From an uncultured Bacteroidales bacterium (GTDB lineage: Bacteria; Bacteroidota; Bacteroidia; Bacteroidales; Paludibacteraceae), in assembly GCA_902798015.1 (NCBI GenBank), contig CADBVL010000013.1, forward strand, positions 147 to 64,146: DNA of 64,000 bases. Direction: 5' to 3'. The notes under the pieces are model-generated. The model saw nothing but the letters and a program-made list of their open reading frames with translations. It did not search any database and had not been told where the DNA came from. This document shows positions 28,423 through 64,000 of the stretch, in pieces (positions within the stretch are counted from its first letter, which is position 1; the number at the start of each line of letters is the position of its first letter). The translations under genes were made by a program, and so were the position numbers.

Positions 28423-28450
28423 AAAAAAGAGCCCCGAGAGGCTCTTTTTT
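28423..28450 (-). terminator. Rho-independent (bidirectional-looking) terminator after the giant gene
   Basis: Stem AGAGCC / GGCTCT flanked by A6 and T5. It lies 54 nt past the stop at 28504. Confidence 0.65.
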
Positions 28451-28503: not shown

Positions 28504-31500
28504 TTACTCTACGCGGTTTCCTCGGGCGTCGAAAATCTGGTCGCCGCGAACGATGTAGAGGATACCGTTGATCATCACTTTGCGGACATCCGATTTGGAC
28601 GGCTCGCCAATCTCCTCCGTACCCGTAGCGATATCTTTGATTTTCGCAATCTCGAGATAGAAACGATCGTCGTATTGTCCGGCTTCGGATTCGAAGGTGT
28701 AGGTGAATCCTGCGCCTAATTCGGTGCGTGCGCCGGTGTTGTTATCCACGAGGGTGATACTTACGCCGTAGGTGCCGTCCGGCATGGAGAGGGTGAACTC
28801 GCCGGCTTTGTACACCTTGATACCTACAGGCACGATGGTCGTTGTCTCGGTGTTGACCGGCATGCTGTTGGCCGCCAGGCGCTCTTGTCCGATCTTCGTG
28901 TAGAGGTCGCTGCGGTATGCATTGAACTCTTTGGACAGGTCTTGTCCGAAGTCGAAGGTATCGGTTATCTGCTCGAGTTCGCTCATACGGACGTAGGTCT
29001 GGTCGATCAGGATCGTATCGCTCATCAGCGCCAGGCGCCAGTTGTACTCGCGGTAGTCCTCTTTCTTCGCGCGGCGTGCTACGATAGGAGAAGGAGCCGG
29101 GCCGCTGACGTTCTTCCAGTGGATCTCACCTCCGTTCTGAACCAGATACGAGTGCATCGGCTGGAAGGAGAACGTGCTGGTAGCCTGCGGAGTGATGGTG
29201 TTGTCCGACATGTTCCATCTATAGATGAACGGGAATTCTTTTTCATCCTCACGCCAGGTGTAGTCGGTCTTCCATGCAATCACATTGCCGCTTGCGTCTT
29301 CGACGGCGGTGTTGTACAGATTGAAGCTCGGCACGCCGATACAACGCCAGTAACTATCCTTCACGCGGCGGTCTCCGTCTATACCGGTACGATTAATCGT
29401 ACACTTGTATTCCGTTCCTAAAGCCGGGATTACCACTTCATCAATATCCGTGATGGAACCCGTGGCAGTCGTGGTGGACGGGAAGAAGAGTTCGACGGTC
29501 GATATACCGTTGGACCAGAAAGCATCGTTCTCGGCTTGCATGTAATCCAGGTCGATACCTAAGATATATCCTACGTTGGCTTTGAGGACGAAGCTCGATG
29601 CCATCTCCGGCGTAACATATTTCCAGTTAGGCGGCGAGTCGATCCAATAGCCGTTCTTCGCACGAGTCAGACCGTCGTAGTACTCAAGGTACCATTCGTC
29701 CCAGTAATGTCCGAAACCGAAGATCTCGCTTACATTGACATCAAACGGGAAGGAGATGAAGTACAAAGAGCGTTCGTAGATGGATTTCTGTTGTCCTACA
29801 GGCAATGGTGGGTGATAGGTTGATATCTGTTCAGCCGTCTTGGCATGCAGCGGATCGATGTCGTACGGATTAGAGCGGTTGTTCAAGATCCAGCGGTTGA
29901 ATTTCATTGCGCCGTAGATAATCTTGACGCCCGTCAATGCACCATCATCCGAGAAGGTGATGTATTCCGCCGGTTTCTGGTGCTCGCGCTCGATGAGCAC
30001 ATCCGCATTGATTCCTATCGGGTTATCGATGCCCGTTCCGTCCGGAATCCATGCGGCAATCAGACGGTTGGTCTTGAAGTCATAGATGACGCGTGCTTTC
30101 TGCATGCCTCCGGAACCGCCGATAAGGATTACCGAGTTGGATGCGTTGAAGGTACAAGTTGTTTTATTATCTCCGGTAGCGAATGCTCCGCGGAAATACT
30201 GCACACTGTCCATGCGATACGGATCCTTCAGCGCATAACTTGCGAACAGCTTAAACCGCGTACCCGGGGTGATATACAGTATTTCTTCGTATATCCAGTT
30301 CTCTTTATCCATCAAGATTGCGGCATTTGGTATGTCTTGCGCTTCGTAAGCTTCTCCGCTTTCATCATCTATTTCCGCGTTCGCTCTCAGTACCAGGAAC
30401 AGACGTGCTGGGTTGGTAGCGGATGCAACGTATGCGCGGCTAATCTTATTGGTAGAGTAGTTGTACATAAAGCGTACGTTGGAACTGTACCGGTCGTTGA
30501 TAGCAGCTTTTGCACCGTCCGTGAGCAATGTTCCGTATTCATCCGTGTTCTTGTAGGGGTTGCCTACGTCTTGCATCAAGGTATCGGAGATACATGCGCT
30601 GTAGTCGTTCGCCACGCAGAACTGGATATTCGTACCGCGTTCGCACCAACTTGCGAAATAGTGGCTATACTTCTTTGCCGGATCAGTTGTGTTTGCATCG
30701 CTGAAGGAGAATTCAGAGTACGTCATCTGGTGGTCGAACGCACGGTAGTTGTCCCATTTGGTACTACCGGCATTATCCGTACGGATATAGAAGTTACCGG
30801 TATATTTCTCTTTCTTGGTGAGCAAGATAGAGGCACCTCCGGCAGGCTGCGATACAATGAAGTTATATACGCCCTTCTCCGTGATACCTGTAAGGCTAAC
30901 CGTTCCGCCATCAACATCTTCCCATGTTACAGCGCCTGTTTCATTATTAATTGCCGTTACTTTTTGGAACTTCGCCGAAGGCGATGAACCATAAGCGACG
31001 TAAAGCGAGACGGTATCGGACTTCGCTTCAGATCCGGTATTCTTTCGGATAATATCCGATGCGTGCCACCAAGAAGCGGTATGAGTAGCTCCTGACCATG
31101 CAGCGAGGTCGTTGTATTTAATGCGATAGTCTCCGATACTTACAGGATATTCTACATTAATATTGTATTTGTAATTAGGTACATCAACGGTTCCGACGTT
31201 GAGGAAACTCAATGTGAATTTATATACACCCGGAGCAGAAGTTTTGATTTCAATCTTCTGGTCTGAGCCGGAGTCTAAATCTGTTTCATGCCATTCCTGC
31301 TTCATGGTGTAGGTCTTCCCTAACAATTGACCGTCATTTCGATAAATCATGAACCAAATCTGCCCGGTGAAGTTAAACTCTACATCCACTTTCCAAGGCA
31401 TTTTCATGTCTCCGCTATATGGGAAGAGATATTCGCGCACCGCACCGGTTACATTATTGGCTAGCGGATCACCATAAATTTTCAGCGTATAACCGGTGTT

Positions 31501-34500
31501 CTCCGGATAATTCATCCAGTAGCCGTTATTATAATATTTGGCATTTGTGTTATGAGTTTCTACTTTCTGATCAGCGAGAGGCACAAACATCGGCAGCGCC
31601 GTATTGTAGTCTCCACGGCGTACAACGTTCGTATTGCTGAAATAGCCATAACCATGCTGGTTGGCTTCTGTGAATACGACATCCTTATAAGCTGCAGGAA
31701 CAGTGGCAGCCTCGCAGTCGAAATACCAGATATTGGTGCCTTCAATCTGCGTCATGGTTCCATGTTTTTGTTCGCTATATGGGTGATCGGTATATTCATA
31801 ATCTTTATCGGCTCCAGAACCCCAGTTGTTACCGGAATTATCCCAGTAACTACTATTCTTATAGAAGTACACATTGACGGTACTCCAACCAAGCGTATTA
31901 TAGAAGTAGATCATACGCTTGCGGGTATAGACGGCGGTAAGAGAACCGTCGAAGATAGCGGTATAACTAATAGTAGCATCTCCCGGAGTATCGGCATCGC
32001 CGACTGTTCCGCTGGTGCAGGTTACACCGTCTCCCAATACCCAGTGGTGGAAGGTGTATCCCGTGATGTCCGGCGCGGTAATAGACTTTGCTGTGATGGG
32101 TAATGCATCCACTTCGTCAGAGGACTTAATCGTCACATCGCCGCACTTATAGAAGACGGTCACGGTGAAGTTATTCGTTACGGTTACGGTCTTGTCGAAG
32201 GTGTTGAGCAATGTGCCGCCGCACGAAGAGCCGAGATAGAGTTTCGCACGGATACGATAGTTACCTGCAGCCAGTCCGCCAAGGTTGAACTTCACTTGGC
32301 GCGGTTTCGCGCCGCCTTCGGTATCTTCTATCGCGTCATGTCCGGTAACAGGATCCTCATTGTCATACAGCAGTTCCCAGCAAACCTTGACGGTGCTACC
32401 GGGAGTCGGATCAATAATCGGATTAGCCTTTACGAAGTTATCGCCGCTCTCTTTCCATTCTACAGCAGCAGGGTTGAGCTCGATATCCGTGATTTCTGCT
32501 TGCTTGTAGTAAGCATAGAGGGTTACATCGCTTAAGCCATCCCATTTGCCATCTGCTGTCGTATAGCCGGAGGCACCGTGAACCCACGTGCCGTCTGCAT
32601 TGATCACTTTGGTTCCTTCACCTCCTGTCTCTGTATAGAAGCCCATGAAGCCATATACTCCAGTACCGCTTGGCATCGTACCGCTGATAGCCGGCAGAGC
32701 CGTGTGATAAGTCACCATCGGATTTTCGCATGTACCTCCGTCACCATAACCCGGATCACTCGTTTGTTTATCAAGCGTAACAGTGTAGTTGTTCGGGTAA
32801 TACTTTGCGTACAAGTTCGTGGGCGTAGCCGAAGTGACAGTCGGGCTATATTCTTGGGTGGATACTAAACGATTAGTGTATGTGCCTTTAGGCGCATCGT
32901 CAACTGAGTACCAGCCATAATAGGTGTAACCATCAGCAGCATTAGCAGCGTAGAAATGCGCGGTTGCGCCATCTGCAATCTTTGTCACGCCGCTTGTGAT
33001 TTGTTTCTCTGCTATCACACCGGTAAAGTTGCCCCACGGATTCGTTTTTCCTCCTTCAGTCGGGACGCGGCTAAACGAAATCTGATACGAAGTCGGGTAG
33101 GTGACGGCTAATTTATGAGTAGATTTATTATAAGTGAAGGTATAGTTACCACTCGGATAAACATCCGCTTTAATAGTCATGTTTGCTCCACCTCCAACCG
33201 TTATATCCAGGTTAGACGTAGTACCTGTGATAGAGTGATCTCCACCACTCCATGCGCCATTATCCAGCACTTTGAATTCATATACAGCATCACGCGCAGT
33301 AAGATTTATTACCGCTGTTCCGACATTTCCGTCAAACACCATGTTACTGGTCTCTGTCCAGTCGTTAAAATCTCCGGTAATAGCATATACTTCGGGGTAA
33401 TAAACGGAGACAGAAGGATTGGAGCCGGAGAAATTAATCTTGAATGTATATGTACCGGCCAATGTGGTCGTCATGTAACAATCGCCTTGGGACGTTTCGA
33501 ATGTCCAGTTCTCCGTAGTACCCTTGATATAATACGTCCCTCCTCCTTCGCTGTTGTCGTTTCCGTACCAAGTTCCACCATTGTTAACCACCTTAAACCG
33601 ATAGGTGGTGTTGGCGCTTAAAGTTACAGTAGCATAAGCCACACTACCCGTAGATTCTCCGGTTTTCTTCGTGAAAGGATAAGCTGTCGCAAAATCATCG
33701 ACGAAAGAACCTCGCAATGTCCACGTGGTCGACAAATTCTCGTTGTAATTGGCAGTAAGAGAATACGTTCCGCTGGATTTGGTTTTAATGCTAACCGGTG
33801 AAGAAGATGTAGATGTTGTTGCCGTAACACCAGTTCCAACTGTCCAATTACTAAACGTATAGCCGCTGATAGCAGGAGCAGAAACATTCTTCGTATTTAC
33901 TTCACCAACGTTGCTTGTGGTAGTTTCTGTCTTAATGGTAGTACTTCCGCACTTATAATATACCGTTACGTTGTGTGTGTTCTCTGCGAAATTGGCAGTT
34001 ACAGTGGCAAAACCACGTGCGGTCAAACTATAAACACCATTGGCAGCATTTGTCTTTATAGATCCATCACCTTCTTTTGTCCAATTCACAAAGTGATAAC
34101 CTGTATTAGCCTGAGCATATATATTTAAGTCTTGTGCGGTATTAATTCCAGTATATGATGCCGATGTACCCCAAGAACCGCTTTCCTTCTTTACTTGACC
34201 ATTTGAGCCAGCAACAATATCCAATTCACCATCAGGAAGAGCCTCGAAATTAGCCTGAATAGTGGCGGATGCATCGCCCGTAACAGTAACAGTTGTTGAA
34301 GCGCTTGTCGAACTGGCAAATGAGGCAGTGCCACTCGTTACTGTCCAATTTACAAAACGATAACCAGAAGAAGGCGTTGCAGTAATAGCGTATGCTGTGC
34401 TCATTTTAATACCCTTTGATTGTGAACCAGTTACAGTGCCATTACCGCCGCTATTTACGGTTAATGTATATGCTGGAGCAACAGAAAGGGAGTTTGATTT

Positions 34501-35184
34501 TGCGTTGTAGGTCCATACGGCAGGCACACCATTATTTACGCCGGACGTACCAGATGGAGACAAATAATTGTTATCCGATTTGCTTGTGTACACATTTGCG
34601 CCATTGGCTGTATAACAATTGCCGGTATAGGTATAGACTCCTGTTCCCGTCCTCGTCATAGTTCCCCAGCTCCATGTGCTGCCATTTGCAAATGGATGTT
34701 TGATATAAAAAGTCGGAGCATATAAAGAAGTACGGAAGGTAATCTTCGGATTGCTTGTTGTGTTAATTACTGTATTAGGATAGTAAACGATGATATATCC
34801 GTTAGATCCATCCCAAATATAGCAGTTGTCGCTTCCATAGTCGCCAATGTTATTGCTGCCCCCATTAAACCCTTTTGCTACATAAGAATAGTTGTAATCC
34901 CAACCGCCAGTAGTTTTGGAGATTTTGAACTTATCGCCATTGAAACTCTGTGCGGAAGTGGAGTAGTATTCATATAATCCACTGTTATGCACCGTCATTG
35001 CAGTCGCTCCCCAAGAGTTTTTATCTCCGCGGTAATAGTAATCACCCCACGCTTGTCCCACGCCGAGGGTGAGGAAGGCGGAAATTAAAAAAGTGTACAG
35101 GACAAAACCTCGATAAAACTCTGATTTAATATGCTTTAAACCAGGTAAATGTTTTACTAAATTGTGTATCATTGTATTTTTCAT
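28504..35184 (-). CDS. Giant (2226 aa) secreted multi-repeat surface protein: Listeria-Bacteroides (Flg_new)-type repeats + CBM/E-set-like beta-sandwich modules + large unassigned C-terminal region with CTD-like tail
   Basis: Start chosen at ATG 35184 ([10 protein letters not shown]...[16 protein letters not shown] signal). Repeats carry GY.F.NW motifs ([41 protein letters not shown]). Modules start G(S/D)F(V/N)D(D/W). The tail ends ...[27 protein letters not shown]. Confidence 0.8.
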
Positions 35185-35216
35185 ATCTTCGGATGTTTTT
35201 AGTGTCGTGAAATGTT

Positions 35217-35660
35217 CTATTTTGGGTCTTTCTCGGAACATGGTCCCGTGATGGTCTCGTGAAATGTTCGATTTTTCCAAGCGATGACACCGCCGAAAAG
35301 CAGCGCAAAGATACCCAGTATCCACGGTTCGCCGATGGGGTACTGCTGCGCCGGATCGGTATCCGGACCGAGGATCTTACCCCTGCGAGGACCTGAAGAA
35401 CTACTCGGCGCTTTGCCATCTACGTATTCTGACGGAACGGCGCCATTGAAGGGTTCGAAAACCGTTGCAGAATAACGCACGGCGGCAGGCATCGCATTGA
35501 CGCTGCGCATGCCATGCGAGGGCATATATCCTATGCTCTGGGCCGTAGTGTTACAGCTGTACACATGTTGTACAGCGTGCCCACTGGTCGCGTACACCGG
35601 AGCGCAGTGTACGTGCGCGAAAAGAAACAACAGTAAGATTGGTATTAATATGCGTTTCAT
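35217..35660 (-). CDS. Small secreted, C-terminally anchored protein, probably co-transcribed with the giant gene
   Basis: Signal peptide MKRILIPILLLFLFAHVHC, a Ser/Pro-rich stretch, then PIGEPW-ILGIFALLFGGVIAW-KNR. It sits 32 nt upstream of the giant gene. Confidence 0.55.
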   Translation of the reverse strand: MKRILIPILLLFLFAHVHCAPVYATSGHAVQHVYSCNTTAQSIGYMPSHGMRSVNAMPAAVRYSATVFEPFNGAVPSEYVDGKAPSSSSGPRRGKILGPDTDPAQQYPIGEPWILGIFALLFGGVIAWKNRTFHETITGPCSEKDPK

Positions 35661-35682: not shown

Positions 35683-35690
35683 CAAAAATA
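35683..35690 (-). promoter_or_regulatory. Bacteroidetes -7 box TATTTTTG for the 35660/giant-gene operon
   Basis: TAnnTTTG, 23 nt upstream of ATG 35660, next to the palindrome AAATACTAAAAGTATTT. Confidence 0.5.
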
Positions 35691-36019: not shown

Positions 36020-36463
36020 TTAAAAAACTTCTATAACTCCGTCATTGTTATAAAAACGCTCAATCTGGGCGCGAGGACTAGCTCCGAAATTTACGAGCAG
36101 GGCTACCGGCCAGCCTGTACCTCGCAGATAACCGAAAGTTTGATAGTGTTCCCGTTCGGTTAATTGGCTGAGGGCTTTACATTCGATAATAATATTACCG
36201 ACAGGCGATTCAACAACTAAGTCCATTTTTAAATAAGACTTCATCTCGTTCCCCTTGTAACGAGGGTGGTATTCTAATTCTTTATGAACATTAAAACCAT
36301 TAACAGCTAATTCTGTCGTTAGTGCTTCTTGATAGATATATTCCGGCATGCCGGCTCCTAATTGTTTGTACACTTCTATCATGGCACCAATAATTCCATA
36401 ACAAGCTTGGACTAATTCAGCCTTTTTAGGTTCTTGTACGATTCGAATAGTGTTCTCTTCCAT
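36020..36463 (-). CDS. GxxExxY protein (PD-(D/E)XK-like)
   Basis: Motifs are LGAGMPEYIYQEAL, D.VVE...IIECK and Q...YL...G....LLVNFG. The start is ATG 36463 or 36472. Confidence 0.75.
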   Translation of the reverse strand: MEENTIRIVQEPKKAELVQACYGIIGAMIEVYKQLGAGMPEYIYQEALTTELAVNGFNVHKELEYHPRYKGNEMKSYLKMDLVVESPVGNIIIECKALSQLTEREHYQTFGYLRGTGWPVALLVNFGASPRAQIERFYNNDGVIEVF

Positions 36464-36676
36464 GTGCTGCATAGGTTTTTGGCTTTTTTTGTGTTGTTTT
36501 TGTGAGTAGCCGGACGGTTTACCGTCAATTGGAGTTGACTGATTGTTCAGCGGGAACGTGTTCACGGATGGACAAGTAGGCAACTGCAATGGAGAGCTGT
36601 AAGCTCGGGGCTACGAGTTTTTGATTTATTGCATAAAAAATACAAATATAGCCTGCATTGCTGCAGGCCATATTGA

Positions 36677-61125: not shown

Positions 61126-64000
61126 ATGAAGAAAATCTTTTCTTTCTTTGCTGCCTTAATGGCAACGACAGTAATGGCTTTCGCTATGGAGATTGCAGTG
61201 CCGACAACGACACTTGATCTGCAAGATCCGACGATGGTCACAACAGCCGGCTGGACGGGCGAAGTCGCCTACTCTCTGGACGACGATGTGCTGGTTGTAT
61301 CCGGCTATGAGTCCTACAAGTCGGTAACCAAACAAACCTGGATCACATTCTCGAGCACAGGCAGTAGCAGCAACACATGGGATGCGCTTGCTCCGTTCAA
61401 GGGCTCCACGTACTACACTACCGCAAGTTATGCTACGCTGCAAGCCGGTCGCTACACCGCGTATCTGGTTACCGGTTGCGACTCCGTTTGGTTGTATGGC
61501 AAAAACAACGCTGCATCCAAGTATCTGAGAATGAACATCTATGATGTGACTGGATCGAGCGCAACTACCCTTGATGACGCAACTGTTGATCCTACGTATG
61601 CGGTATCGAATACCGCTACCACTGACCCGATGGTTTTGAAGCAGGAGTTGGATGCTGCCAAGACCTATCTGATTGTTACCACAGGTGTGGGAGGCAGCAA
61701 CAGTCGCGTCTTTGAGATTGCTTTCTTCCGCAACCCGGGTGCAACGCCCAAGACCTATTGGACTGTTGCCGGTAGTTCTGCAACACTTTTCGGTACTACT
61801 TGGGATCCGGCTAACAAAGCCAACGACATGATCAAGCAGGAGGACGGCTCCTACAAATGGGAGAAGACCGAGCTCGAGCTCGCTGCAGGTGAGATCGCTT
61901 TCAAAGTCTGCAAAGACCATGCATGGACGGAAGCATATCCTACTTCGGATTACAAACTCCCGATTGATGAGGCTGGTATCTATACCATCACCATCACGTT
62001 CGAGCCTGAGAACGAGAACAAAGTAAGTGCAGTCGCAACCAAGACCGGTGAGGCTGTTGTTCTCCCGACGGTTGTTCTCCACGGTAATTTCTCTGGTGAC
62101 TGGAAAGACACCGATCCGTTTGCGCCTGCAGAGAATAAAGAAACAGCAGAGTTGACACTCTCTTTGAAGAAAGGCACCTACGAGTTTGGCTTCAAATTCG
62201 ACGGCGCATGGAAAGCTAACGGCGCGAACATCACCCGCGCAGAGAATACCGCTAACCTCGCTACCGGAAGCGGTAACATGCATATCACGGCTGACGAAGA
62301 AGGCGACTATGTATTCACTTACACGTTCGAAACCCAAGGATTGGTAGTGGCTTATCCGGCTAAGACGATTCCGGAGGATTACGAAGCAATCTTTGCTTAC
62401 AACGGAAAAGGTACTACCAAAGCGGAAGAAGTGATCTACGAAGGCGGTACGCTGACTGCATACGGTTATGGTCAACCCGGACCGGAGGGAATGAATTCCA
62501 ATATGACGTACAATTCTTCCCAGAAGGGTAATATGACCATCAAGATCGGTAAGGGTTATCATAAGAATGCAGAAGGTGAAGGTTACTACTTCATGGCTAT
62601 CACCCTGGATAAGGCATTGGAAGAGGGCGACCTGCTCCAGGTAGCTGCTTTCCGTACAGGTGGTACGGACTGTGTCTTTGGCATGGACTTCAATGTAGAA
62701 GCTGACTCTGCTGCTGCAACCGACGAGTGCCAATACCTGTTTGAGAACAACCTCCAGATCCTCAGCTCGAATGGCGTGCCGACGGATGAGGTAATCGACA
62801 TCCCTGCTTGCGCAGTAGGTGCGAAATATATCCGTCTCTATCGCAAGAGCGGTAGCACAGGTCTCTATATCGCGAACTTCTCTGTATTCCGCAAGAAAGG
62901 CGGCGAGCCTGAGAAGGAATACGAACTCAAGAACTGCTGGGACGACGGCGAGTGGAAGTGGAAAGCAACCGTGAAAGACGGCGACGACTATAAACTCGAG
63001 AACGTTGTCTTCGGTGGTCAAGGTGTAAACTGGAGAGAGGTCGGCAGTGCAACGGATGGTACCTGGGTACCTGTAGCTGACTTCCTTGGTGACAACACCA
63101 TCGCTAAATTCGATACCGTAACACTCGCTCTGAATCCTACCGAGGGTAAGATTACCGCTACGCTCATTGGCAAGTACATCGATCCGGCTCCTGCTGATCC
63201 GACAGCTGCTATTATAGGTTCCTTCAATGAGTGGACAGAAGAAATTCCGTTTAAGCTCTCCGAGGATAAGAAGAAAGCTTCGCTGAGCGTTAATGATCTT
63301 GGCGCAGGTTTCTATGACTTCAAGATGGTCATCAACGGCGCATGGCGTTCGAATGGCTACGAGTTCCATCGTGGCTTCCCTGGTTGCGCAGGTATCTCCG
63401 AGAATAAGGCTGAGGACATGCGCTTCGAGGCAGACATAGCAGGCGCTTATACCTTCGAGTGGTACTTCGAGAACGACTCGCTCAACATCATCTTCCCGGA
63501 GAAACCCGTACCGACTGAGCCGACAGCGGCTGTTGCCGGAACGATGAGCGAATGGGAAGAGATTCCGTTCCAACTCTCTGAGGACAAGAAGAAAGCTACG
63601 CTGTTCAATGACAACATCAAGCCTGGCACGTATGCCTTCAAGATGATCATCAACGGCGAATGGCGTTCGAATGGCTACGAGTTCCATCGTGGCTTCCCTG
63701 GTTGCGCAGGTATTTCCGGTAATGAGCTGCAAAGCATGACCGTTGTAATAGATGTAGAGGGTGCTTACACCTTCGAGTGGTACTTCGAGAATGACTCGCT
63801 GGCTATCATCTTCCCGGAGGCACCGACTCCTGTCTTCGCAGACGGTTACTACCTCATGGGTTCCTTCAACGAGTGGGCTATCGCTGCTGAGAACCTCCTC
63901 CAGAGCAATCTCGAGGCTGAGGGTGAGGAGTATGTACTTAGCATCAACCTCAATGCTGGTGATGAGATCAAGGTGGCATTCGTAGAGGCTGATGAAGCTA
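61126..64000 (+). CDS. Large secreted multi-module protein, 3' end beyond window (ORF missing from supplied track)
   Basis: I checked frame 1 codon by codon from ATG 61126 (preceded by an in-frame TAA at 61111) to 64000 and found no stop. The signal peptide is MKKIFSFFAALMATTVMAFA. Repeated ~107-aa beta-sandwich modules (GSFNEW...AYTFEWYFENDSL.IIFPE) resemble those of the giant protein at 28504. Confidence 0.8.
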   Translation, partial: MKKIFSFFAALMATTVMAFAMEIAVPTTTLDLQDPTMVTTAGWTGEVAYSLDDDVLVVSGYESYKSVTKQTWITFSSTGSSSNTWDALAPFKGSTYYTTASYATLQAGRYTAYLVTGCDSVWLYGKNNAASKYLRMNIYDVTGSSATTLDDATVDPTYAVSNTATTDPMVLKQELDAAKTYLIVTTGVGGSNSRVFEIAFFRNPGATPKTYWTVAGSSATLFGTTWDPANKANDMIKQEDGSYKWEKTELELAAGEIAFKVCKDHAWTEAYPTSDYKLPIDEAGIYTITITFEPENENKVSAVATKTGEAVVLPTVVLHGNFSGDWKDTDPFAPAENKETAELTLSLKKGTYEFGFKFDGAWKANGANITRAENTANLATGSGNMHITADEEGDYVFTYTFETQGLVVAYPAKTIPEDYEAIFAYNGKGTTKAEEVIYEGGTLTAYGYGQPGPEGMNSNMTYNSSQKGNMTIKIGKGYHKNAEGEGYYFMAITLDKALEEGDLLQVAAFRTGGTDCVFGMDFNVEADSAAATDECQYLFENNLQILSSNGVPTDEVIDIPACAVGAKYIRLYRKSGSTGLYIANFSVFRKKGGEPEKEYELKNCWDDGEWKWKATVKDGDDYKLENVVFGGQGVNWREVGSATDGTWVPVADFLGDNTIAKFDTVTLALNPTEGKITATLIGKYIDPAPADPTAAIIGSFNEWTEEIPFKLSEDKKKASLSVNDLGAGFYDFKMVINGAWRSNGYEFHRGFPGCAGISENKAEDMRFEADIAGAYTFEWYFENDSLNIIFPEKPVPTEPTAAVAGTMSEWEEIPFQLSEDKKKATLFNDNIKPGTYAFKMIINGEWRSNGYEFHRGFPGCAGISGNELQSMTVVIDVEGAYTFEWYFENDSLAIIFPEAPTPVFADGYYLMGSFNEWAIAAENLLQSNLEAEGEEYVLSINLNAGDEIKVAFVEADEA
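63217..64000 (+). repeat. 321-nt (107-codon) tandem module repeat, at least 2.4 copies
   Basis: Module starts (GG(T/A)(T/A)C.(T/A)T... encoding GSFNEW / GTMSEW / GSFNEW) are at 63217, 63538 and 63859. A block of about 60 nt, TGGCGTTCGAATGGCTACGAGTTCCATCGTGGCTTCCCTGGTTGCGCAGGTAT, is identical in copies 1 and 2. Confidence 0.85.

Follow-up and report, generated by a model that had tools for sequence, protein, structure and literature searches.

The locus and its two genes

The window analysed here is a stretch of 64,000 nucleotides from the genome of a rumen/gut member of the Paludibacteraceae (1.95 Mb, 85% complete). On its minus strand, to which all coordinates below refer unless otherwise stated, a gene encoding a small protein of 147 amino acids (aa; 35217..35660) is followed by the gene of a giant protein of 2226 aa (28504..35184), composed of a signal peptide, variable Flg_new_2/CBM-like repeats and a conserved C-terminal module of ~1020 aa. 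The pair is best regarded, with probability leaning somewhat towards this explanation as a whole, as a two-gene operon and as one copy of a recurrent cassette, in which the small protein would be an exosortase-processed partner of the giant and the giant an alpha-glucan-binding type IX secretion system (T9SS) cargo.

In the list of open reading frames (ORFs) the two genes appear as a 147-codon ORF (35660..35217) and a giant ORF (35325..28504), and the initial annotation described the end of the small gene as covered by an extension of the giant one. This overlap of 109 nt is indeed present in the list, but it stems solely from an upstream GTG start in a different frame. The first ATG past the stop codon of the small gene, at 35184, gives the protein of 2226 aa, whose N-terminus is a signal-like segment of which relatives keep ..LGVGQ(A/M)W(A/G); since this segment is conserved, the overlap has to be considered an artefact of ORF listing. 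The public gene calls, of 102 aa for the small protein and 2164 aa for the giant, both lack signal peptides and are likely annotation errors, from which the putative signal peptides are missing.

With respect to transcription, a pattern search located a -7 promoter box of the Bacteroidota type, TATTTTTG (35683..35690), 23 nt 5' of the ATG of the small gene. Beyond the giant gene there is an intrinsic terminator (28423..28450), made up of an A-run, a GAGCC-loop-GGCTC hairpin and T6, which was read directly from the letters and had not been listed by a consensus terminator scan. Metatranscriptome run X1 contains an assembled contig (7083 nt, word depth 27) that comes from a close relative. One of its ends aligns with 35043-35659, from the first codon of the small gene into the giant gene, at ~92% identity; the other aligns with 28504-28806 and extends 83 nt past the stop codon, to ~28421, and its divergent middle part gives no alignment with the window. 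The ends of this contig match the predicted start of the unit and its terminator, thus providing RNA support for a two-gene unit, which is good, although not conclusive, for a single transcript. Taken together with the maintenance of the pair in syntenic loci, described below, it bears out the initial claim of a two-gene unit with its own -7 box and terminator.

A second -7-like box, TATCTTTG, is found at 35306-35313, inside the helix-coding part of the small gene and ~120 nt 5' of the ATG of the giant one. This could be an internal promoter, or the match could be due to chance.

The small protein and its tail

The small protein consists, in this order, of a signal peptide, a Ser/Pro-rich linker, the motif P-I-G-E-P-W (residues 108-113; 35322..35339), a membrane helix, WILGIFALLFGGVIAW, with a basic K-N-R cluster (residues 113-131; 35268..35324), and 16 further residues, a layout that agrees with the one first described. 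Sequence searches retrieved 21 homologues of 93-158 aa, down to 35% identity. Their alignment (A1) has P108, G110, E111, P112, W113, I114 and L115 as invariant positions (P-x-G-E-P-W-I-L), followed by a hydrophobic helix and then by K/R residues, and it also contains a Y-x-x-T-V-F-E-P-F block and a basic G-P-R-R-G-K site (residues 90-95; 35376..35393), of which R92 is nearly invariant. The 16 residues beyond the basic cluster occur in the closest relatives only and are probably a recent extension. Against the concern that the small ORF might have no homologues or no expression stand these 21 sequences and the place of the gene within the RNA-library contig.

The Cys present in the signal peptide is not conserved, and the protein is therefore not considered a lipoprotein. 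The term tail-anchored, used for it initially, is imprecise: the signal peptide looks cleavable, and the protein would accordingly be bitopic and of type I.

Between the F-E-P-F block and P-x-G-E-P-W, two alternative linkers, GPRRGKILGPDTDPAQQYP and GRRNGFGPRPDDKPADTSP, recur in close homologues. That they are frame-shifted readings of one DNA was ruled out by eye. Their mix does not track overall identity, which hints at recombination between alleles.

Across the whole family (alignment A3) the tail motif is P-[ILV]-[GDE]-[DE]..W, and the paralogues end in ..QQPLGDGLW.., ..FPLGDAVW.., ..YPLGDGLW.., ..PQPLGDVAW.., ..CPIDFNW.. and ..VPVEDNAW... The combination by which curated sorting domains are recognised, that is, a three-part end of motif, helix and basic cluster together with an N-terminal signal peptide, is found in both alignments. 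No Pfam or NCBIfam family matches the small protein at E<=0.1, and none of the curated CTERM models accounts for the tail, with only scattered weak matches among the 20 tails of A3 (E 0.005-0.3): PGAP-CTERM in 3, PEP-CTERM in 2-3 (E ~0.02-0.03), LPXTG in 2-3 and PID-CTERM in 1 (E 0.016). The tail is therefore termed PEP-CTERM-like, and not PEP-CTERM. To this extent the original suggestion holds: motif, helix and basic tail are conserved, an exosortase-family gene is present and, as indirect evidence, it co-occurs with the tails.

Both partners share, in addition, a basic motif. In the giant, A-R-R-A-K-K (29062..29079), followed by acidic residues, lies in a disordered linker (predicted local distance difference test, pLDDT, <50); A834 and R835 are nearly invariant, and the motif opens a region of ~190 aa common to paralogous giants, ~195 residues from the C-terminus. 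In the small proteins the R-R motif is placed ~15-35 residues before P-x-G-D/E, and all paralogues read [GAS]P[RK]RAK and then acidic residues. The common denominator, [AP]-R-R-A-(K) plus acidic residues, is found in both partners, with paralogues on contigs C1, C2, C4, C35, C60 and C88 of this genome (G000), and may correspond to a common processing/cleavage or docking site.

Recurrence of the pair in this genome and its relatives

The genome was scanned for C-terminal motif-helix-basic ends and then with hidden Markov model profiles of the tail (A3) and of the last 140 residues of the giant (A4), which comprise a beta-sandwich and a terminal motif of 25 aa. Nine complete small tail proteins of 117-275 aa were found, besides a contig-edge fragment and one gene broken by N's, together with 12 ORFs carrying the full sandwich-plus-tail end and ~35 further ORFs with the last 25-aa motif alone. 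All nine complete tail proteins are encoded within ~50-400 nt of a full-end ORF, and none of the nine adjoins an ORF having only the 25-aa tail. Counting this pair, the genome thus has about ten such cassettes, each formed by a large protein and a small tail protein in either gene order, since the small gene precedes the giant in the window and follows it elsewhere in the genome. No paper describing such giant-plus-tail-protein cassettes was found in the literature searched.

Orthologous loci, recognised by the downstream panD-tgt-lptFG genes, have the arrangements small-giant-panD (the window and locus L001), giantA-small-giantB-panD (L059) and giant-small-panD (L060). The linkage outlasts these changes of gene order and therefore points to function rather than chance, and the co-occurrence of the small family with giants, for which a check had been recommended, is found both within the genome and across loci. 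There is also a natural fusion: in genome G145, contig C31 (L029:1480-3432), the small ORF runs in frame and without a stop into the giant's own signal peptide, reading ..PIGEPW-helix-RQYKRKTVKS-MNMKNSTSKFIATLALLCTLGVGQMWA-SF... The topology of this fusion would be consistent: past the helix and the basic loop, the giant's signal peptide would serve as another hydrophobic segment entering the membrane, where signal peptidase could cleave it.

It could be argued that the adjacency is meaningless and that the small ORF is an independent gene, or no gene at all, taking into account that the body of the small protein is of low complexity and diverges fast, and that a profile of the whole protein matches in only 7 of 151 Paludibacteraceae genomes (too narrow a result, for which the tail-only profile A3 was used instead). 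This explanation is, however, contradicted by the 21 homologues with their invariant motifs, by the inclusion of the gene in the RNA-library contig and by the persistence of the linkage through changes of order. Moreover, the 12 full ends with 1 kb on either side cover an estimated ~1% of the 1.95 Mb, and yet 9/9 tail proteins lie beside them. It thus seems very improbable, and the reading as a functional pair is retained in what follows.

The exosortase-family gene and its occurrence in related genomes

A weak Pfam Exosortase_EpsH match led to an ORF of 198 aa on contig C56 (C56:5169-5762; L003:1426-2022, minus strand), which is the one exosortase/archaeosortase-family protein encoded in the genome (TIGR04178, 41.8 bits vs a cut-off of 23); the gene that a PEP-CTERM-like tail would call for, and for which a search had been recommended, is therefore present. 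The protein is far under the cut-off of every named subfamily, as illustrated by XrtX (NF046081; 37 vs 170) and XrtF (TIGR04128; 29.2 vs 90), and no relevant paper on XrtX, XrtY or PID-CTERM was found in the literature searched. Eleven orthologues have W-x-C103-[ST]-x-[LIV]-K-Q, N149-x-x-R152 and H171 as invariant elements. The exosortase/archaeosortase superfamily is characterised by a Cys/Arg/His centre, and the invariant Cys103, Arg152 and His171 fit this description.

The enzyme is present in 113 of the 151 Paludibacteraceae genomes sampled, and in 123 of 301 sampled from the Bacteroidales. Tail profile A3 matches 56 of the 151, and all of these but one are enzyme-positive (55/56), the exception being a weak match inside an 864-aa frame. 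The strongest part of this co-occurrence evidence is given by contrasts within two genera (g4 and g6), in each of which the sole enzyme-positive genome (G064 and G066, respectively) is also the sole tail-positive one. The loci of these two genomes encode proteins of 131-143 aa ending in ..PVPLGDAVV-helix-RKRKARL, ..FPIGDDLW-helix-RRKRE and ..LPLSNATF-helix-RKRKQ, each of which directly follows a protein of 787 to >1850 aa. Among these three large neighbours, two have, according to profile A4, the same kind of sandwich as the end of the giant (called RemA-like below), and all three have, by eye, C-terminal ends similar to type A T9SS signals, one of them being picked up by the Pfam type A model (26.6 bits vs a cut-off of 27). 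Enzyme, tails and giants are found together in G001, a closed genome of 3.7 Mb. Outside the Paludibacteraceae the tail profile is weak, with five of its seven matches in enzyme-positive genomes.

In an exosortase-positive genome of another Bacteroidales family (G389), three ORFs of 72-83 aa (on contigs C65, C76 and C78) match the tail profile weakly. They may represent a "mini-protein" form of the tail/exosortase system.

The giant protein

The only Pfam match of the giant that passes its threshold is Flg_new_2 (PF18998; E 5.6e-16, 58.7 bits vs 23.6), a divergent InlB B-repeat found in three stretches, the best of which covers residues 239-315 (34240..34470), the two others following it; the Flg_new-type repeats of the initial annotation are thus corroborated. 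The CBM/E-set-like modules proposed alongside them are only partly so. Homologues of the giant carry CBM26, X25 and Big_2 according to precomputed Pfam lists, but in the giant itself such matches stay below threshold, among them one to CBM48; hGDE_N also falls short (14 bits vs 22.1).

The C-terminal module (residues 1203-2226; 28507..31578) is conserved at 40-60% identity in >600 clusters of giants. In an indexed search >1200 proteins match it, corresponding to 608 clusters at 50% identity with E<=1e-30, and the match is always C-terminal, behind N-terminal regions of varying length and domain content. These ~1000 residues, which had been left unassigned at the outset, have no Pfam or NCBIfam match and do not map to a known adhesin or glycosidase family; scans of both proteins and of sub-segments with these two collections gave nothing named beyond Flg_new_2, and searching PDB chains with the complete giant sequence gave no match.

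The AlphaFold model of the module, based on a 42-sequence alignment, has a pLDDT of 81.7 and shows two beta-sandwiches, a core of ~570 aa, a disordered linker, a beta-hairpin region, a further beta-sandwich, another linker and, at the terminus, three short strands. The compact core (residues 1474-2044; 29053..30765), which has no Pfam match, reaches a pLDDT of 86.3 and a predicted template modelling (TM) score (pTM) of 0.84 when modelled alone. Foldseek searches of the PDB with the 1024-aa model and the 571-aa core gave chance-level results, with a best TM-score of 0.11 for the core. The top rows, botulinum HA70/HA3, complement and neuraminidases (TM ~0.1), were not read as homologous. A single meaningful lead emerged, the starch-binding X25-2 domain of Ruminococcus bromii Sca5, and it is weak, with a probability of 0.25-0.41. 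When the core was searched for among the named clusters of the Atlas, nothing was returned, and DUF6383 (PF19910), to which the Atlas had pointed, is without a match in the genome. Thus, ~550 of the ~1000 unassigned residues are predicted to fold confidently into a structure without a PDB match, and the module as a whole appears to be folded and widespread.

The C-terminal end of the giant and type IX secretion

The last beta-sandwich of the module (28648..28905) is homologous to a domain of two surface proteins of Flavobacterium johnsoniae. The profile of giant ends (A4) matches RemA (8gl6_D, residues 1257-1392; E 6.4e-14) and RemZ (8gl8_D, residues 938-1070; E 3.2e-10) in the PDB, the matched part being the beta-sandwich that precedes their type A C-terminal domain (CTD). 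RemZ is a type A T9SS substrate whose CTD has been found bound in the SprA-PorV translocon, and the CTD of RemA has been studied as an mCherry fusion (PMC10994853). The giant ends in a tail of 25 aa (28507..28584), which is found at the extreme C-terminus of ~45 large ORFs of the genome, with the motif T-G-I-E...K-[VL]-[IL]-x-D-G-x-L-[YF]-I-x-R-x-x-K-x-[YF]-[ND]-A-x-G-x-x-V-[KR]. These residues align with the first strands only of the type A domain (..K-V-x-I-D-G-x-L-Y-I.. vs ..I-K-V-T-S..V-N-I-F-D-I-T-G-K). Outside a few genera of the Paludibacteraceae the motif is rare, and in the sample of the order Bacteroidales it is nearly confined to one genus.

The beta-rich tail had been tentatively taken as a T9SS signal. 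This is plausible by its position after a RemA-like sandwich and by the machinery present in the genome (SprA_N, 601 bits; PorU, 1025 bits; PorV, 414 bits), although it receives no help from CTD models, given that the giant and all 25 of the aligned ends are without a match to either the type A (PF18962/TIGR04183) or the type B model (TIGR04131). Two partner giants of other genomes (G066 and G132) come just under the 27-bit cut-off of the type A model, with 26.6 and 25.3 bits. From its position and its numbers, the 25-aa end could derive from the type A signal as a reduced form specific to this lineage.

Alternatively, the giant may not be a type IX cargo, and its last 25 aa would then form a lineage-specific hairpin for binding to the surface or envelope, or some other sorting signal, possibly read by the small partner. 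We consider this unlikely, although it deserves attention: besides the 0/25 matches to CTD models and the narrow distribution of the motif, the tail falls far short of the ~80 aa of RemA's type A domain. Nevertheless, it occupies the extreme C-terminus of ~45 large ORFs in a genome with only three Por_Secre_tail matches and a full PorU/PorV/SprA set and, where type A-like domains are detected in related proteins, they follow the RemA-like sandwich at the same position. As for the partner as reader, most tail-only proteins lack a small partner, which therefore cannot be the general reader of the 25-aa tail. The interpretation of the end as a T9SS-type signal is accordingly the one preferred here.

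Two further occurrences of the 25-aa motif were noted. On contig C2 (C2:11236-16207, minus strand) there are three tandem genes, of 732, 307 and 602 aa, that all finish with it and lack a small partner, from which it follows that the partner accompanies the full RemA-like end, and not the short tail. Inside the window, the 3'-open ORF at 61126-64000 (plus strand) continues on the contig of the window, C13, to C13:64397, giving a 1046-aa frame that ends, a short way outside the window, in the same motif.

Base composition and a neighbouring gene

The 1-kb windows between 33001 and 36000 have 42-45% GC, vs ~52% elsewhere. The GC content at third codon positions (GC3) of the giant gene is 0.38 in codons 1-700, 0.52 in codons 700-1700 and 0.69 in codons 1700-2226, in comparison with 0.64-0.75 in neighbouring housekeeping genes and 0.57 in the small gene. 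Since GC3 itself is low in codons 1-700, amino-acid content does not explain the anomaly. The giant gene is thus a compositional mosaic. The A/T-richness from which a horizontal origin had been surmised is real when computed, but it is limited to the variable 5' part, and for this reason recombination that exchanged the repeat region for lower-GC DNA is a better fit than a transfer of the entire unit.

Between glgP and the small gene lies a gene (36020-36589) that resembles GxxExxY/PDDEXK_3 by eye (..GAGMPEYIYQEAL..) and has a GC3 of 0.38. It is missing at the same spot in L001, and L059 has a PDDEXK_3 gene between panD and tgt. It is possibly a mobile insert of low GC content.

Proposed function of the pair

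A sequence of events can be proposed for the two products. Both would be exported by the Sec system, the small protein being held in the inner membrane by its C-terminal helix with its body in the periplasm. The single ~200-aa exosortase-family enzyme, with its Cys-Arg-His set, would then read the motif, cut off the helix and pass the new C-terminus to an acceptor. Such a cleavage with transfer of the new C-terminus has been proposed for PEP-CTERM proteins and reported for substrates of archaeosortase A. The giant would travel as a T9SS cargo, with the RemA-like sandwich and the 25-aa end in place of a type A CTD, and the small protein would be its own partner for secretion or surface attachment, in the manner of PorP/SprF-like proteins. 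Each type B cargo is said to be served by a protein of this kind, according to the SprB-SprF pattern. Finally, the giant would bind an alpha-glucan (starch or glycogen) on the cell surface, a suggestion based on the sub-threshold CBM48/CBM26 matches, the CBM26/X25 domains of homologues and the weak fold match to X25-2 of Sca5. From the sequences we infer exosortase cleavage, its acceptor, T9SS export, the role of the partner and glucan binding, and contact of the partner with the giant is likewise putative. As a whole, this explanation is favoured, if by a limited degree of confidence.

Several observations weigh against it. The RNA evidence is an assembled contig from a relative ~92% identical, and the library may hold DNA. 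Neither the tail of the small protein nor the end of the giant is claimed by a curated model, and the CBM matches in the giant are under the Pfam cut-offs (AMPK1_CBM, 22.8 vs 26.8; CBM26, 17.5 vs 28.1). The enzyme gene is unlinked to any cassette, adjoining tsaD, and its copy in this genome diverges after ..HLLHE and is without the last helix, YIFKYLFYG.., of all 10 orthologues. The gene runs antisense into the 3' end of a convergent antiporter gene. A simple frameshift was rejected, as no other frame restores the last helix, and the aberrant 3' end may reflect either a genuine truncation or a fault in the assembly. Of the 113 enzyme-positive genomes, 58 have no detectable tail; the counts are, moreover, not corrected for kinship, and the relatedness of the genomes inflates the co-occurrence statistics.

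Some of these facts, namely the lack of a CTERM match, the unlinked and C-terminally aberrant enzyme and the 58 tail-less genomes, would be accommodated if the small protein were an unprocessed bitopic protein of the inner membrane, acting as a periplasmic holdase or assembly factor for the neighbouring giant, with the exosortase acting on another target. The in-frame fusion of G145 also fits a purely membrane-bound role during Sec export. Even so, this possibility is considered unlikely: the invariant residues stand exactly at the junction between motif and helix, as in sortase-type signals, 55 of the 56 tail-positive genomes carry the enzyme, including the contrasts G064 and G066, and the genome scan for motif-helix-basic ends revealed no other candidate set of substrates. 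Processing of the partner by the exosortase-family enzyme remains, for these reasons, the preferred explanation.

A more ambitious and rather improbable proposal is that two sorting machineries converge on the pair. The enzyme would cut the partner at P-x-G-E/P-W and attach it to a lipid or a glycan, or else to the giant; once processed, the partner would provide every RemA-like T9SS giant with an anchor or export adaptor on which it depends; the 25-aa end would be a reduced T9SS signal, the part of the lost domain being supplied by the partner; and P-R-R-A-acidic would be the common processing or docking site.

It has been reported that xrtF mutants of F. johnsoniae have the same colonisation and biofilm defects as T9SS mutants, and that XrtF substrates are still to be found in this organism and are expected to differ from PEP-CTERM proteins (PMC10936215). 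Exosortase-family genes are common in Bacteroidota, and the locus described here offers defined candidate substrates for such enzymes, tied gene by gene to T9SS-type giants, so that the role of the exosortase and its relation to type IX secretion can be addressed by knockout and mass spectrometry. What would be new is an exosortase-type signal family with a new motif, placed on dedicated partners of RemA-like giant cargo. Two further elements have also been defined, the ~1020-aa module (>600 clusters at 50% identity), the core of which has a fold without solved relatives, and the short C-terminal motif, borne in this genus by ~45 proteins per genome.

Comparison with known systems

The proposed processing of the small protein has its closest counterparts in the systems formed by PEP-CTERM and exosortase (EpsH) and by its relatives from the Bacteroidota side catalogued in NCBIfam, PID-CTERM (NF046080) and exosortase X (NF046081). 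Common to these systems and to the cassettes are a three-part C-terminal signal combined with an N-terminal signal peptide, a small polytopic Cys/Arg/His enzyme with the exosortase signature, and one enzyme gene for many substrate genes. The motif, in contrast, is P-[ILV]-G-[DE]-x-W here, and not PEP or PID, the existing models do not claim the tail, and the enzyme is far under the XrtX/XrtF cut-offs. Furthermore, the carriers are proteins of 117-275 aa, each tied to one giant neighbour, and not free-standing surface proteins.

Regarding the repeats and the putative binding to alpha-glucan, the giant resembles InlB B-repeat (Flg_new/Flg_new_2) proteins with CBM26 and X25, such as amylosome scaffolds, with which it shares Flg_new_2, the CBM26/X25 domains of its homologues and the weak fold match to X25-2 of Sca5. 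The ~1020-aa C-terminal module with its 570-aa core is, however, not part of these families.

RemA and RemZ of F. johnsoniae (8GL6, 8GL8; PMC10994853) are likewise very large, repeat-rich surface proteins with a homologous sandwich before the signal, and PorU, PorV and SprA are present here too. The difference lies in the end, since theirs is, according to our own reading of the alignment, a type A domain of ~80 aa that binds PorV and SprA, whereas the giant ends after 25 aa.

Lastly, type B cargo and its PorP/SprF-like partner (SprB-SprF) would follow the same proposed logic, with a small partner gene of its own beside each giant cargo. Unlike SprF, the partner described here is bitopic, carries an exosortase-type tail and is not an outer-membrane beta-barrel, so that the likeness would be one of working and not of family.

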